In this document: in pieces, positions 2,840 to 64,000 of the stretch
Position numbering within the stretch: the stretch's first letter is position 1
Layout: every line of letters begins with the position of its first letter
DNA from: Escherichia coli
Lineage (GTDB): Bacteria > Pseudomonadota > Gammaproteobacteria > Enterobacterales > Enterobacteriaceae
NCBI RefSeq assembly: GCF_003991155.1
Contig: NZ_CP031293.1
DNA length: 64,000 nucleotides
Reading direction: 5' to 3' (one strand)
Program-made: the position numbers and the translations under genes
The notes under the pieces: model-generated
The model's database searches: none
Seen by the model: only the letters and a program-made list of their open reading frames with translations
Told to the model about the DNA's origin: nothing

Positions 2840-2916
<77 letters not shown>

Positions 2917-3006: not shown

Positions 3007-3092
3007 GTAGGCCTGATAAGACGCGCCAGCGTCGCATCAGGCAAATGTACCGGCCCATTGTCGGATGCGGCGCGACCGCCTTATCCGATCTA
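3007..3092. repeat. Pair of REP (repetitive extragenic palindromic) elements
   Basis: GTAGGCCTGATAAGACGCGCCAGCGTCGCATCAGGC and GTCGGATGCGGCGCGACCGCCTTATCCGATCTAC match the REP consensus. Confidence 0.7.
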
Positions 3093-11002: not shown

Positions 11003-11072
11003 AGAGAGAAAACCCCCGCACGTTGCAGGTATGCACCTGACAACATCACGGGGGCTAATCTTGAACCTAGAC
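11003..11072 (-). ncRNA. rdlD: Rdl antisense antitoxin RNA, copy 1
   Basis: Minus-strand sequence GTCTAGGTTCAAGATTAGCCCCCGTGATGTTGTCAGG...CGTGCGGGGGTTTTCTCT matches the recalled RdlD sequence and ends in a terminator hairpin; ends approximate. Confidence 0.6.
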
Positions 11073-11485: not shown

Positions 11486-11555
11486 AGAGAGAAAACCCCC
11501 GCACGTTGCAGTTATGCACCTGACAACACCACGGGGGCTAATCTTGACTCTAGAC
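11486..11555 (-). ncRNA. Rdl antisense antitoxin RNA, copy 2
   Basis: Paralogous to copy 1 with a few substitutions; ends approximate. Confidence 0.6.
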
Positions 11556-11797: not shown

Positions 11798-13477
11798 TTA
11801 TTGCGGGTAAGGCACCCAGTCGCCGCCGTTCAGGCGAACGTACGGTTTATCCTGGTATTGAATAACTACTGCATTTGAGTTCTCGGAGACCGGTGCTGTT
11901 TGTGGCAACCCACTGGTGAGTTTTTTCCAGTCAACATTGTCTTCGGAGAAAATCTTGCCATCAAGAACGCGAACCACCAGATCGGAGATAGCCAAGAAGC
12001 TGCTCGGTTGGTCGATGACAATCGGTGCCCCCTGATGTGGTGCCTTCATGCCGAAGAATTTCACCCCAACGGGGACGTCTGTGATAGACGGGCTAGGGAT
12101 ATCACGTAGGCCAGATACCTGCATTCTGTCGCCCTTCAGCGCGCCGCCGTGTTCCGGCACCACGACCACCATCACTTTACGACCCGATTTCTCCAGTTCA
12201 GTAAAGAAGGCGTCCAGTTCATCAAAGAATTTCTGCGCCCGCGCTTTGTAATCCGCTGTTTTGCTGACGCCCGGATAATGGTTGCCGTCATGCAGTGGAA
12301 GCGTGTTGTAGAACGTGGCACTACGGCTGTTTTTATCTTTTTCGGTAACGTCCAGCCAGCGGTTAAGCACGGCGGTATCGTCATAAACCGGCGAACCATC
12401 AAAGCCCAGCAAAACAACCGGCAGATTTGTTTGATCCATCAATTCGGTCTGCATGCCGCCATTTTCGCGAACTTCTTTCAAAAAACCGCCGAACTGGCCG
12501 TTATGTCCCATCATCAGGTGCTGGGTAAAGCCCAGTTTCGACAGGTTATCAAACAGATAGCAGTCGTTATTTGCCGGTTGATACAGATTAGTGTGCGAAG
12601 TCTGCCCGCAGCTGGCGCGCAGTAAACGGATCGCCGCCGGGCCACTGTAGGAGGTGGCGGAGTTAAAGTTCTTGAACTCAATATCGAAATGCGACCACAG
12701 CGGATGCGACATCAACCCGGCGGCTTCAATATCCGACCAGGAAAGCGAACAGATATTAATCACCAGTAGTTCAAATGGCTGAGCATCAGCGGGCAGCGAA
12801 GACGGGAAGATTGATTTACGTTTCGCCTCCGCGTTATAGAAATTATTCAGCCAGGCGTTAAGGTTCGCCGTTGTTGGCGGTGCAGTTTGTGCGGGCATAT
12901 CACCCACTACCGGTGCGCCACCCGTCGCCGCAACGGTTGCCGCTGCGTTACCGCCCGTCGTTGTTACAGTGGTCGTTGGTTGACCGGCTGGCCACAAGGA
13001 GAAACTTGGTCCCGCCAGGGTAAGTACGTTCAGCCATAGCAGAATGGCAACCACAAAAACGGTAATGCGAATCCATTGTGACAGGAATAACCAGGCCACT
13101 AATAAAACAAAAATGGCCCCAATCATCTGCCAGTTAATAAAGCGTGTGACAAGGTCGATTAAATAATCGGTACTGAACCCCGCCACCTGCGAACCCTGGC
13201 TCATTATGCTTTCCGGGCCAGGCAACCAGGTGTCATGCCAGAACAAAGCAAAGCCGATCGGCAGGGCAATCCAGTGGCGTAAGCGATGCAGGCTGTAGCG
13301 CGGAATGGGCATCAGCAGAAACGCGGCAAACACCAGATTGAGGAGCGGATGGAAGTTAAGATATCCCGCCCACAACAGGCCGAACTTAACCAGAAAATAG
13401 AAGTTCCAGCCGGAAAGGCCGCGCCAGTATTGCCAGAGGGAAGAAGGCATGGCGGTATTTTGCGTAAATTGAGTCAT
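11798..13477 (-). CDS. bcsG: Cellulose phosphoethanolamine transferase BcsG
   Basis: 559-aa ORF with N-terminal transmembrane segments and a sulfatase-like domain; last gene of bcsEFG. Confidence 0.95.
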
Positions 13478-15704: not shown

Positions 15705-16457
15705 ATGGCCGTACTGGGATTGCAGGGGGTGCGGGGAGGCGTGGGGACAACAACCATCACCGCCGCATTAGCCTGGTCATTACAAATGTTGGGAGAAAAT
15801 GTCCTGGTGGTCGATGCCTGCCCGGACAACTTGTTGCGCCTGTCATTTAACGTTGATTTTACCCACCGTCAGGGCTGGGCCAGAGCTATGCTGGATGGCC
15901 AGGACTGGCGTGACGCTGGGTTGCGCTATACCTCGCAACTCGATTTGCTGCCTTTTGGTCAGTTATCCATTGAAGAACAAGAAAATCCACAGCACTGGCA
16001 AACCCGGCTGAGCGATATTTGCTCCGGCTTACAGCAACTAAAAGCCAGCGGGCGTTACCAGTGGATTTTAATTGACTTACCGCGTGATGCCTCACAGATA
16101 ACCCACCAGCTGCTGAGTTTGTGCGATCACTCGCTGGCAATCGTCAATGTGGATGCCAACTGCCATATCCGACTGCATCAGCAAGCGCTGCCGGATGGCG
16201 CGCATATTTTGATTAATGACTTCCGTATCGGCAGTCAGGTTCAGGACGATATTTACCAGCTTTGGTTGCAAAGCCAGCGCCGATTACTGCCAATACTCAT
16301 TCATCGTGATGAAGCGATGGCTCAATGCCTGGCGGCTAAGCAACCAGTCGGTGAATACCGCAGTGATGCGCTGGCGGCTGAAGAGATACTGACGCTGGCT
16401 AACTGGTGCCTGTTGAACTATTCCGGGCTGAAAACGCCAGTCGGGAGTGCATCATGA
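15705..16457 (+). CDS. bcsQ: Cellulose synthase localisation ATPase BcsQ, intact
   Basis: Uninterrupted 250-aa ORF; codon 6 is TTG (Leu); ParA/MinD-like P-loop GVRGGVGTTT. Confidence 0.95.
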   Translation: MAVLGLQGVRGGVGTTTITAALAWSLQMLGENVLVVDACPDNLLRLSFNVDFTHRQGWARAMLDGQDWRDAGLRYTSQLDLLPFGQLSIEEQENPQHWQTRLSDICSGLQQLKASGRYQWILIDLPRDASQITHQLLSLCDHSLAIVNVDANCHIRLHQQALPDGAHILINDFRIGSQVQDDIYQLWLQSQRRLLPILIHRDEAMAQCLAAKQPVGEYRSDALAAEEILTLANWCLLNYSGLKTPVGSAS

Positions 16458-19078
16458 GTATCCTGACCCGGTGGTTGCTTATCCCGCCGGTCAACGCGCG
16501 GCTTATCGGGCGTTATCGCGATTATCGTCGTCACGGTGCGTCGGCTTTCAGCGCGACGCTCGGCTGTTTTTGGTTGATCCTGGCCTGGATTTTTATTCCG
16601 CTGGAGCACCCGCGCTGGCAGCGTATTCGCGCAGAACATAAAAACCTGTATCCGCATATCAACGCCTCGCGTCCGCGTCCGCGTCCGCTGGACCCGGTCC
16701 GTTATCTCATTCAAACATGCTGGTTACTGATCGGTACATCGCGCAAAGAAACGCCGAAACCGCGCAGGCGGACATTTTCAGGTCTGCAGAATATTCGTGG
16801 ACGTTACCATCAATGGATGAACGAGCTGCCTGAGCGCGTTAGCCATAAAACACAGCATCTCGATGAGAAAAAAGAACTCGGCCATTTGAGCGCCGGGGCG
16901 CGGCGGTTGATCCTCGGTATCATCGTCACCTTCTCGCTGATTCTGGCGTTAATCTGCGTTACCCAGCCGTTTAACCCGCTGGCGCAGTTTATCTTCCTGA
17001 TGCTGCTGTGGGGTGTAGCGCTGATCGTACGGCGGATGCCGGGGCGCTTCTCGGCGCTAATGTTGATTGTGCTGTCGCTGACCGTTTCTTGCCGTTATAT
17101 CTGGTGGCGCTACACCTCTACGCTGAACTGGGACGATCCGGTCAGCCTGGTGTGCGGGCTTATTCTGCTGTTCGCCGAAACGTACGCGTGGATTGTGCTG
17201 GTGCTCGGTTACTTCCAGGTGGTATGGCCGCTGAATCGTCAGCCGGTGCCATTGCCGAAAGATATGTCGCTGTGGCCGTCGGTGGATATCTTTGTCCCGA
17301 CTTACAACGAAGATCTCAACGTGGTGAAAAATACGATTTACGCCTCGCTGGGTATCGACTGGCCGAAAGACAAGCTGAACATCTGGATCCTTGATGACGG
17401 CGGCAGGGAAGAGTTTCGCCAGTTTGCGCAAAACGTGGGGGTGAAATATATCGCCCGTACCACTCATGAACATGCGAAAGCGGGCAACATCAACAATGCG
17501 CTGAAATATGCCAAAGGCGAGTTCGTGTCGATTTTCGACTGCGACCACGTACCAACGCGATCGTTCCTGCAAATGACCATGGGCTGGTTCCTGAAAGAAA
17601 AACAGCTGGCGATGATGCAGACGCCGCACCACTTCTTCTCACCGGACCCGTTTGAACGCAACCTGGGACGTTTCCGTAAAACACCGAACGAAGGCACGCT
17701 GTTCTATGGTCTGGTGCAGGACGGCAACGATATGTGGGACGCCACCTTCTTCTGCGGTTCATGTGCGGTGATTCGCCGTAAACCGCTGGATGAAATTGGC
17801 GGCATTGCTGTCGAAACGGTAACTGAAGATGCGCATACTTCTCTGCGTTTGCACCGTCGTGGCTATACCTCCGCGTATATGCGTATTCCGCAGGCGGCGG
17901 GGCTGGCGACCGAAAGTCTGTCGGCGCATATCGGTCAGCGTATTCGCTGGGCGCGCGGGATGGTGCAAATCTTCCGTCTCGATAACCCGCTCACCGGTAA
18001 AGGGCTGAAGTTTGCTCAGCGGCTGTGCTATGTCAACGCCATGTTCCACTTCTTGTCGGGCATTCCACGACTGATCTTCCTGACTGCGCCGCTGGCGTTC
18101 CTGCTGCTGCATGCCTACATCATCTATGCGCCAGCGTTGATGATTGCCCTGTTCGTGCTGCCGCATATGATTCATGCCAGCCTGACCAACTCGAAGATCC
18201 AGGGCAAATATCGCCACTCTTTCTGGAGTGAAATCTACGAAACGGTGCTGGCGTGGTATATCGCACCACCGACGCTGGTGGCGCTGATTAACCCGCACAA
18301 AGGCAAATTTAACGTCACCGCCAAAGGTGGACTGGTGGAAGAAGAGTACGTCGACTGGGTGATCTCGCGGCCCTACATCTTCCTTGTTCTGCTCAACCTG
18401 GTGGGCGTTGCGGTAGGCATCTGGCGCTACTTCTATGGCCCGCCAACCGAGATGCTCACCGTGGTCGTCAGTATGGTGTGGGTATTCTACAACCTGATTG
18501 TTCTTGGCGGCGCAGTTGCGGTATCGGTAGAAAGCAAACAGGTACGCCGATCGCACCGCGTGGAGATGACGATGCCCGCGGCAATTGCCCGCGAAGATGG
18601 TCACCTCTTTTCATGTACCGTTCAGGATTTCTCCGACGGTGGTTTGGGGATCAAGATCAACGGTCAGGCGCAGATTCTGGAAGGGCAGAAAGTGAATCTG
18701 TTGCTTAAACGCGGTCAGCAGGAATACGTCTTCCCGACCCAGGTGGCGCGCGTGATGGGTAATGAAGTTGGGCTGAAATTAATGCCGCTCACCACCCAGC
18801 AACATATCGATTTTGTGCAGTGTACGTTTGCCCGTGCGGATACATGGGCGCTCTGGCAGGACAGCTATCCGGAAGATAAGCCGCTGGAAAGTCTGCTGGA
18901 TATTCTGAAGCTCGGCTTCCGTGGCTACCGCCATCTGGCGGAGTTTGCGCCTTCTTCGGTGAAGGGCATATTCCGTGTGCTGACTTCTCTGGTTTCCTGG
19001 GTTGTATCGTTTATTCCGCGCCGCCCGGAGCGGAGCGAAACGGCACAACCATCGGATCAGGCTTTGGCTCAACAATGA
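16454..19078 (+). CDS. bcsA: Cellulose synthase catalytic subunit BcsA
   Basis: MSILTRWLL... start overlapping the bcsQ stop (ATGA); glycosyltransferase-2 motifs and C-terminal PilZ domain; 874 aa. Confidence 0.95.
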   Translation: MSILTRWLLIPPVNARLIGRYRDYRRHGASAFSATLGCFWLILAWIFIPLEHPRWQRIRAEHKNLYPHINASRPRPRPLDPVRYLIQTCWLLIGTSRKETPKPRRRTFSGLQNIRGRYHQWMNELPERVSHKTQHLDEKKELGHLSAGARRLILGIIVTFSLILALICVTQPFNPLAQFIFLMLLWGVALIVRRMPGRFSALMLIVLSLTVSCRYIWWRYTSTLNWDDPVSLVCGLILLFAETYAWIVLVLGYFQVVWPLNRQPVPLPKDMSLWPSVDIFVPTYNEDLNVVKNTIYASLGIDWPKDKLNIWILDDGGREEFRQFAQNVGVKYIARTTHEHAKAGNINNALKYAKGEFVSIFDCDHVPTRSFLQMTMGWFLKEKQLAMMQTPHHFFSPDPFERNLGRFRKTPNEGTLFYGLVQDGNDMWDATFFCGSCAVIRRKPLDEIGGIAVETVTEDAHTSLRLHRRGYTSAYMRIPQAAGLATESLSAHIGQRIRWARGMVQIFRLDNPLTGKGLKFAQRLCYVNAMFHFLSGIPRLIFLTAPLAFLLLHAYIIYAPALMIALFVLPHMIHASLTNSKIQGKYRHSFWSEIYETVLAWYIAPPTLVALINPHKGKFNVTAKGGLVEEEYVDWVISRPYIFLVLLNLVGVAVGIWRYFYGPPTEMLTVVVSMVWVFYNLIVLGGAVAVSVESKQVRRSHRVEMTMPAAIAREDGHLFSCTVQDFSDGGLGIKINGQAQILEGQKVNLLLKRGQQEYVFPTQVARVMGNEVGLKLMPLTTQQHIDFVQCTFARADTWALWQDSYPEDKPLESLLDILKLGFRGYRHLAEFAPSSVKGIFRVLTSLVSWVVSFIPRRPERSETAQPSDQALAQQ

Positions 19079-47497: not shown

Positions 47498-47603
47498 AAA
47501 AAAAACCCGGCATAGGGGACCGGGAAGAGGATAGTCTGCCGTCTCCAGACTAATAAACCGTTATAACACTCCCTGTTGGCACGGGAAACTTTGTGCTCTC
47601 AGT
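47498..47603 (-). ncRNA. gadY: GadY small RNA
   Basis: Minus-strand sequence ACTGAGAGCACAAAGTTTCCCGTGCCAACAGGGAGTGTTATAACGG...CCTATGCCGGGTTTTTTTT matches the recalled GadY sequence and ends in a terminator. Confidence 0.8.
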
Positions 47604-47849
47604 AAGTTAAATATAACTTTTACTGGAAATAAGATCAGCCATTTTTTTATAAACATAAGCTATACGCTGTGCGAAAATATATTCGTGTTGCATTTACTTA
47701 TTGTCAATTAACTGTTATGCAAAACTACTTTGTGGATAAATTTTGGTCCTACCAAATCTGGCAGTTTTTGCGCTAAGAAACAGTCTGGCATCATTTCATT
47801 AGTATACTGAAATTGAAATAATCGCAGTAATGAAATATAAGGGATAGTC

Positions 47850-53236: not shown

Positions 53237-53574
53237 TTTAGTCCCTGAAAATTCTTGAGAAATAACGGTTCTTTAAATTGCGCGCGAGGAGAGATATGAG
53301 GGATTTACAGACCAGCGGCATAGTGGGGTTGTCAGCCAGTAAGATGGGATGCAAGCACAGTGATCGACATGGTGAGGTCAACGACAAAAAAAATGTTGCC
53401 GTTCTGCCAACAGTTTCTGCCAGCATTCGGGCAACGAAGGGTTCTACTGGTGGATACACATACCAGGGGAATAAAGTCGTTTTCGTCTCTCCTTCAATAA
53501 TCACCGGGGGTATTGAAATCAGCATCTGCATCCCTCGTCATGCCAGCCATCAATTTCAGTTGCTTATGTCCTTA

Positions 53575-63124: not shown

Positions 63125-63156
63125 AGCATTTTTTATTTTCCTCATGGAGAATCGCT
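63125..63156 (+). promoter_or_regulatory. Candidate FourU-type RNA thermometer around the chuA Shine-Dalgarno
   Basis: U-runs (TTTTTTATTTTCC) directly 5' of CATGGAGA (the SD) could pair with it. A FourU thermometer in the shuA/chuA leader is established knowledge; the fold was not computed. Confidence 0.35.
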
Positions 63157-64000
63157 ATGTCACGTCCGCAATTTACCTCGTTGCGTTTGAGTTTGTTGGC
63201 TTTGGCTGTTTCTGCCACCTTGCCAACATTTGCTTTTGCTACTGAAACCATGACCGTTACGGCAACCGGGAATGCACGTAGTTCCTTCGAAGCGCCTATG
63301 ATGGTCAGCGTTATCGACACTTCCGCTCCTGAAAATCAAACGGCTACTTCAGCCACCGATCTGCTGCGTCATGTTCCTGGAATTACTCTTGATGGTACCG
63401 GACGAACCAACGGTCAGGATGTAAATATGCGTGGCTATGATCATCGCGGCGTGCTGGTTCTTGTCGATGGTGTTCGCCAGGGAACGGATACCGGACACCT
63501 GAATGGCACTTTTCTCGATCCGGCGCTGATCAAGCGTGTTGAGATTGTTCGCGGACCTTCAGCATTACTGTATGGCAGTGGCGCGCTGGGTGGAGTGATC
63601 TCCTACGATACGGTCGATGCAAAAGATTTATTGCAGGAAGGACAACGCAGTGGTTTTCGTGTCTTTGGTACTGGCGGCACGGGGGACCATAGCCTGGGAT
63701 TAGGCGCGAGCGCGTTTGGGCGAACTGAAAATCTGGATGGTATTGTGGCCTGGTCCAGTCGCGATCGGGGTGATTTACGCCAGAGCAATGGTGAAACCGC
63801 GCCGAATGACGAGTCCATTAATAACATGCTGGCGAAAGGGACCTGGCAAATTGATTCAGCCCAGTCTCTGAGCGGTTTAGTGCGTTACTACAACAACGAC
63901 GCGCGTGAACCAAAAAATCCGCAGACTGTTGAGGCTTCTGATAGCAGCAACCCGATGGTTGATCGTTCAACAATTCAACGCGATGCGCAGCTTTCTTATA
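63157..64000 (+). CDS. chuA: TonB-dependent outer-membrane haem receptor ChuA (ShuA), 5' portion; continues beyond the window
   Basis: Open frame from the ATG at 63157 (MSRPQFTSLRLSLLALAVSATLPTFAFA, TonB box ETMTVTA) to the window edge without a stop; SD GGAG 7 nt upstream. Confidence 0.9.
   Translation, partial: MSRPQFTSLRLSLLALAVSATLPTFAFATETMTVTATGNARSSFEAPMMVSVIDTSAPENQTATSATDLLRHVPGITLDGTGRTNGQDVNMRGYDHRGVLVLVDGVRQGTDTGHLNGTFLDPALIKRVEIVRGPSALLYGSGALGGVISYDTVDAKDLLQEGQRSGFRVFGTGGTGDHSLGLGASAFGRTENLDGIVAWSSRDRGDLRQSNGETAPNDESINNMLAKGTWQIDSAQSLSGLVRYYNNDAREPKNPQTVEASDSSNPMVDRSTIQRDAQLSY

Follow-up and report, generated by a model that had tools for sequence, protein, structure and literature searches.

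A recent one-unit gain, most likely by replication slippage, in the CGTCCG repeat of Escherichia coli bcsA

The cellulose synthase gene bcsA in a 64,000-nt stretch of Escherichia coli DNA (the window) carries three perfect CGTCCG units. It is very probable that a two-unit repeat has recently gained one unit here, most likely by slippage, at a site where rare length variants recur and with a small or nil effect on function. The allele is a real but ordinary polymorphism. Every property that can be checked in sequence would place it among the coding-region short tandem repeats whose length varies by slippage.

Direct reading of positions 16670-16687 on the plus strand returned cgtccgcgtccgcgtccg / CGTCCGCGTCCGCGTCCG, that is, three perfect head-to-tail copies of the hexamer, in frame within a plus-strand open reading frame. 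An earlier reading of this DNA from its sequence alone had thus been correct in calling three tandem units encoding RPRPRP, as it was in assigning the gene and its protein length of 874 aa. The position of the extra unit inside 16668-16688 is unassignable: alignment to E. coli 2016C-3878 sets a 6-nt gap at 16668-16673, which is equivalent to any other placement in the tract. A period scan of the 64-kb window found no other perfect hexamer in three copies, and 100 mononucleotide shuffles of the window contained none.

The open reading frame as listed opens at an upstream GTG (16406; 890 aa), and translation from the ATG at 16454 (MSILTRW...) gives the 874-aa protein, with its stop at 19078. This exact protein is on record as E. 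coli AZR87129.1, named ‘UDP-forming cellulose synthase catalytic subunit’ by NCBI, and it matches the Pfam families Glycos_transf_2 (GT2), Cellulose_synt and PilZ; its structural model is of high confidence. It has the layout of an E. coli-type (type II Bcs) BcsA, with a GT2 catalytic domain, a C-terminal PilZ domain and an N-terminal extension of ~140-150 residues made of short amphipathic helices, and it aligns to E. coli BcsA in the PDB from residue 1. The operon context, read from the window’s open reading frames and collinear with the annotated 2016C-3878 locus, is bcsRQABZC with divergent bcsEFG. All bcs genes within the window are full length and the cluster is intact.

Table 1. Features of the bcs locus in the window, with the evidence for each.
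Feature	Position	Strand	Basis and remarks
bcsG, phosphoethanolamine transferase, 559 aa, intact	11798..13477	-	ORF; collinear with 2016C-3878 annotation, without that strain’s IS621
bcsQ, 250 aa, intact (unlike K-12)	15705..16457	+	4-nt overlap with bcsA start
bcsA, UDP-forming cellulose synthase catalytic subunit, 874 aa + stop	16454..19078	+	ORF; AZR87129.1; Pfam; bcsA annotation in matching genomes
BcsA N-terminal domain, aa 1-151 (1-149 in K-12 numbering)	16454..16906	+	PMC11379886, PMC11470070; predicted helices
alpha4-alpha5 loop, aa 66-79, YPHINASRPRPRPL	16649..16690	+	AlphaFold2 and conserved motif; 14 residues here, 12 in the two-unit protein
Full period-6 tract, 21 nt, 3.5 copies, 100% matches	16668..16688	+	Period scan and Tandem Repeats Finder
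CGTCCG x3, encoding R73-P74-R75-P76-R77-P78 (RPRPRP) of BcsA	16670..16687	+	Codon table against K-12
Helix alpha5, aa 80-94	16691..16735	+	AlphaFold2 model

Several other elements were matched in the window. Two rdlD antitoxin RNA matches adjoin bcsG (11007-11072 and 11490-11555, minus strand) and correspond to the two genes for Ldr-family type I toxins in the annotation of the relative 2016C-3878. An Rfam match at 63128-63159 (plus strand) is the shuA/chuA 5′ UTR thermoregulator and suggests a chuA-positive strain. Further Rfam matches are GadY (47493-47606), the ES205 sRNA (53386-53457) and naRNA4 (3010-3090), all on the minus strand, and a tRNA match at 2840-2913 (plus strand) is tRNA-Pro by the relative’s annotation.

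Comparison with K-12 MG1655 isolates the extra unit. There, bcsA spans 2,619 nt and encodes 872 aa (WP_000025892.1) with CGTCCG twice and RPRP, as the sequence-only reading had stated, so that the difference here is exactly one unit; gene, operon position and domain organisation are as in the window. The same reading had allowed that reference genes might also prove to carry three units, and K-12 carries two. The K-12 bcsQ call falls 8 codons short of that in other genomes, whereas the bcsQ of the window is intact. Three distinct sequences of E. coli BcsA are represented in the PDB by six entries, 9FMV, 9B8V and 7LBY among them; all have RPRP and show a 2-residue gap when aligned with the window protein. 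That protein differs from them over the N-terminal 200 aa by L41M, T94A and T106A (window numbering) besides the repeat.

Units were then counted across the species, as had been proposed, in 5,426 complete E. coli genomes queried with probes of one, two, three or four units with 40-nt flanks. The locus was present in 5,316, and the identity bands agreed across the four probe searches (18+17=35). Two units were found in about 5,280 genomes (99.3%), three in 18 complete RefSeq genomes (~0.34%; a one-unit gain), one in 17 (~0.32%; a one-unit loss) and four in none. The synthetic four-unit query gave no full-length match, its high-identity matches being partial alignments to one-unit genomes and to strain MIN10. 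Alleles differ by whole units, and the 40-nt flanks match at 100%. A literature search returned no published description of a bcsA repeat polymorphism; the extra-unit allele is already in public databases, where the alleles are annotated.

MIN10 (E. coli O126:H45, NZ_CP069677) was considered as a further length allele and rejected, as its partial match reflects a 1,159-bp deletion (locus L033, about 3000) that begins at bcsR codon 3, takes in bcsQ and ends within bcsA. The right endpoint of this deletion lies 1 nt inside the CGTCCG repeat, with no microhomology at the junction.

In the window’s own lineage, the gain is very recent. The full bcsA gene, a query of 2,625 bases, retrieved relatives whose 2,619 bases are 99.8% identical to it. 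The nearest complete relative, 2016C-3878, shows no SNP across window positions 1-39078 (~39 kb) and departs from the window there only in lacking the 6-nt unit and in carrying an IS621 insertion. It is the absence of any substitution that makes the event a very recent one. The insertion (IS621, IS110-like) splits bcsG in 2016C-3878 (NZ_CP029747; L022 14378-15642; window equivalent about 12095-12109). Relaxed selection through loss of BcsG is inapplicable to the window, which lacks this IS621 and retains an intact bcsG.

Beyond this lineage, the same change has recurred in unrelated strains. Local haplotypes were compared in a subset of the variant genomes, 16 of the 18 with three units and 7 of the 17 with one. 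Within 150 bp of the repeat, 6 haplotypes with three units can be told apart; the number rises to 8 at 300 bp and to 9 at 600 bp. Conversely, the K-12 haplotype occurs with three units (PD7), two (K-12) and one (SC516 and M159-1), and a second mixed haplotype joins 7_33_80A (three units) with 99_0288 (one unit). Many haplotypes with three units, and one haplotype with all three lengths, show that single units have been gained and lost in place, repeatedly and in unrelated strains. This is homoplasy and not one inherited event; it rules out the spread of a single allele and is what slippage by one unit at a short perfect repeat would predict. A second lineage (L002, L004) has the same BcsA, identical over all 874 aa, but differs from window positions 16454-19078 by 29 SNPs, all synonymous, a combination that shows both strong purifying selection on BcsA and an independent origin of three units. 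In the other three-unit alleles (WP_001684944.1, WP_000025924.1, WP_113396719.1 and WP_062874280.1) and the one-unit alleles (WP_072643177.1, WP_097765687.1, WP_059338703.1 and WP_242817535.1), exactly one unit is changed and the flanks are unchanged. The other length alleles lie on different SNP backgrounds, separated from the window by 113-152 differences in about 7.3 kb, and are therefore of independent origin.

Damaged bcs genes were seen in a number of variant carriers: bcsQ has an internal stop in an O157:H7 group and in 2014C-3061, bcsB a frameshift or stop in the WP8-S17 group and APEC E14033, bcsE a stop in SC516 and M159-1 (the latter also with IS1 at bcsR), and bcsA an internal stop in ET5. 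Both two-unit comparators are likewise damaged or altered, 2016C-3878 by IS621 in bcsG and K-12 in its shorter bcsQ, whereas the window cluster is intact. A link between variant alleles and decay of the bcs operon was considered, and no such claim is made. Another in-frame repeat-type change within bcsA was noted in the one-unit strain SCU-104 (NZ_CP053284), where a 24-nt tandem duplication near aa 643 doubles ILLNLVGV and yields an 878-aa protein.

Replication slippage is the most likely mechanism, judged from the allele pattern, with the reservation that two units make a very short tract for slippage and that other routes to short tandem duplication or deletion are indistinguishable from it. 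The slipped-strand mispairing offered by the sequence-only reading is thus retained as the best explanation, given that one-, two- and three-unit alleles recur on both unrelated and identical haplotypes. On this account, the ancestral tract in E. coli bcsA would have been CGTCCG CGTCCG with partial units on either side; slippage during replication in the recent ancestry of the strain would have added one unit; and the gain would have inserted Arg-Pro in frame at a turn of the BcsA N-terminal domain. The tract would gain or lose a unit at a low rate, every variant remaining rare. The repeat itself seems to be a by-product of a conserved peptide. RPRP is encoded by CGCCCG twice in Salmonella (a perfect repeat), by AGG CCG CGG CCG in Enterobacter and by CGT CCG CGC CCG in Kosakonia; given these imperfect versions in the latter two genera, it is the peptide that is conserved and not the DNA, and the E. 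coli DNA repeat exists because the conserved RPRP is written twice with one codon pair.

The setting of the repeat in the protein bears on its effect. Cryo-EM and AlphaFold work describes the N-terminal domain of E. coli-type BcsA (~149 residues) as short amphipathic helices on the cytosolic face of the membrane that recruit three copies of BcsG, as a trimer (PMC11379886, PMC11470070). The repeat falls within this cytosol-facing domain, which agrees with its earlier placement in an N-terminal cytoplasmic segment (PMC11379886). The BcsG contacts of BcsA are residues 8-10, 47-50 and 92-93, and helix alpha5, residues 81-88 in K-12, packs on a C-terminal SxxPRxP motif (PMC11379886). RPRP, at residues 73-76 in K-12, forms part of the alpha4-alpha5 turn directly before alpha5 and has no published contact with BcsG.

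AlphaFold2 models were made of both alleles (mean pLDDT about 88); they are monomers without BcsG and say nothing direct about recruitment. Helices predicted for the three-unit protein (2-8, 11-26, 31-47, 53-65 and 80-94) match the five helices described for the domain (PMC11379886). Helix alpha4 spans residues 53-65 in both models. The loop after it comprises residues 66-77 (12 residues) with two units versus 66-79 (14 residues) with three, and alpha5 moves from 78-92 to 80-94, keeping its length of 15 residues. For residues 71-80, pLDDT is about 82 with two units versus about 67 with three, a fall that may reflect only the absence of homologues with the insertion. The three-unit BcsA would probably fold and work, as no change is predicted in the helices on either side, the loop gains two residues and the bcs cluster is intact.

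Among relatives, the turn shows a fixed length. A protein search with the N-terminal domain alone returned mostly frameshifted fragments that aligned poorly and was replaced by a full-length search and by a search of representatives at 50% identity; the motif was found in 118 full-length cluster representatives, covering Escherichia, Salmonella, Citrobacter, Enterobacter, Kosakonia, Yokenella and Pseudescherichia. In 117 of these 118 enterobacterial sequences, the motif [YF]PHI..x[RK]PRPLD[PA]xRY contains exactly two [R/K]-P units, the sole exception being the window’s own BcsA, and PRPLD is invariant. Homologues of 45-54% identity had no indel at the turn, and their residues vary (KPRIGD, RPRLGD, KPRLFD, NWRPGD). 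The domain is described as otherwise weakly conserved (PMC11470070). Turn length is thus strongly conserved inside it, and the invariant loop length counts against full neutrality of an extra unit.

Because turn length is so strongly conserved, we do not endorse the earlier judgement that the extra Arg-Pro is probably neutral. Neutrality is not established where the two-unit length is fixed in Enterobacteriaceae and in distant homologues, the domain recruits BcsG and each variant stays at or below about 0.3%; from these comparisons, a mild cost is as plausible as neutrality. The strongest alternative to the account above departs from the slippage explanation in fitness effect only: a longer turn beside helix alpha5, in a place where length is constrained, would weaken packing between the N-terminal domain and the C-terminus, or the recruitment of BcsG, such that variants arise repeatedly and selection removes them. 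We regard this as possible but on balance doubtful. It would accommodate the near-universal two-unit turn, the rarity of both variants, with another length fixed in no genus, the alpha5 contact and BcsG recruitment by the domain, and the lower local pLDDT of the three-unit model. The published BcsG contacts, however, do not include residues 73-76, three-unit clones persist and are widely spread (an O157:H7 group in the UK, USA and Korea; another group in Japan, China and Switzerland), and a low mutation rate under neutrality would explain rarity equally well. Rarity together with conservation fits neutrality with infrequent mutation as well as it fits mild purifying selection. A severe defect from the third unit is unlikely, because three-unit clones persist across continents and the bcs cluster of the window is intact. 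Any effect of the third unit is probably small.

Simple-sequence contingency loci underlie phase variation in Haemophilus, Neisseria and Campylobacter, and bcsA resembles these in its recurrent repeat-mediated length change within a gene. Unlike them, it has a very short tract whose unit is a multiple of 3, its expression is not switched, and its variants are rare. A phase-variable contingency locus was considered and rejected on these grounds, as a 6-nt unit keeps the frame and none of the proteins of 870, 872 and 874 aa is truncated; a long hypermutable tract was likewise rejected, as the tract has one to three units and one allele predominates. That unit number is nonetheless switched to adjust BcsG recruitment or the pEtN modification of cellulose we consider highly improbable. 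Gains and losses do recur at one site inside a partner-recruiting domain, but the range of lengths is narrow, in-frame changes switch nothing on or off, nearly all genomes share one allele, and the peptide is retained in other genera that lack a perfect repeat in the DNA.

Hexanucleotide VNTR loci, some in coding sequence and changing by whole units through slippage, serve MLVA typing of E. coli O157:H7; such loci have many units and are highly polymorphic. The bcsA tract shares with them a short tandem repeat that changes by whole units, but with its one to three units and a Simpson diversity of ~0.013 (calculated from the allele counts) it does not fill that role. The sequence-only reading had proposed it as a useful strain marker. 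This holds in so far as the tract separates the clone from its nearest complete-genome relative; as a general typing marker it is weak, because one allele is found in nearly all genomes and the minority alleles are homoplastic.

Origin of the three-unit allele in one event, followed by spread through homologous recombination, is extremely improbable. E. coli recombines, and the three-unit WP_062874280.1 is common to RM9088, PD7 and 7_33_80A. Yet the SNPs that flank the repeat to either side within 150 bp differ among carriers, two carriers match two-unit strains exactly over at least 600 bp (PD7 and K-12; the window and 2016C-3878, the latter over 39 kb), and all carriers together have no short identical tract around the repeat in common. 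An error of sequencing or assembly can be dismissed as the least probable reading of all, with the identical 874-aa protein called on 16 contigs (NCBI, ENA and Logan assemblies) and three units present in 18 complete genomes; to our knowledge, gains of perfect 6-nt units are not a typical error of sequencing platforms.

The finding matters little for genome biology, being a textbook small in-frame repeat polymorphism. It does offer a clean natural case in which a repeat of minimal length, two units, has repeatedly gained or lost one, and for which over 5,000 complete genomes supply the allele frequencies. The one- and three-unit alleles are also ready-made natural mutants of a length-invariant turn, cheap to test in laboratories that work on pEtN-cellulose. 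One very unlikely idea that they could address is that turn length sets the geometry of the N-terminal domain, the C-terminal hairpin and the BcsG trimer, with alleles that gain or lose Arg-Pro tuning pEtN on cellulose; if true, this would amount to natural, low-frequency tuning of biofilm matrix chemistry.
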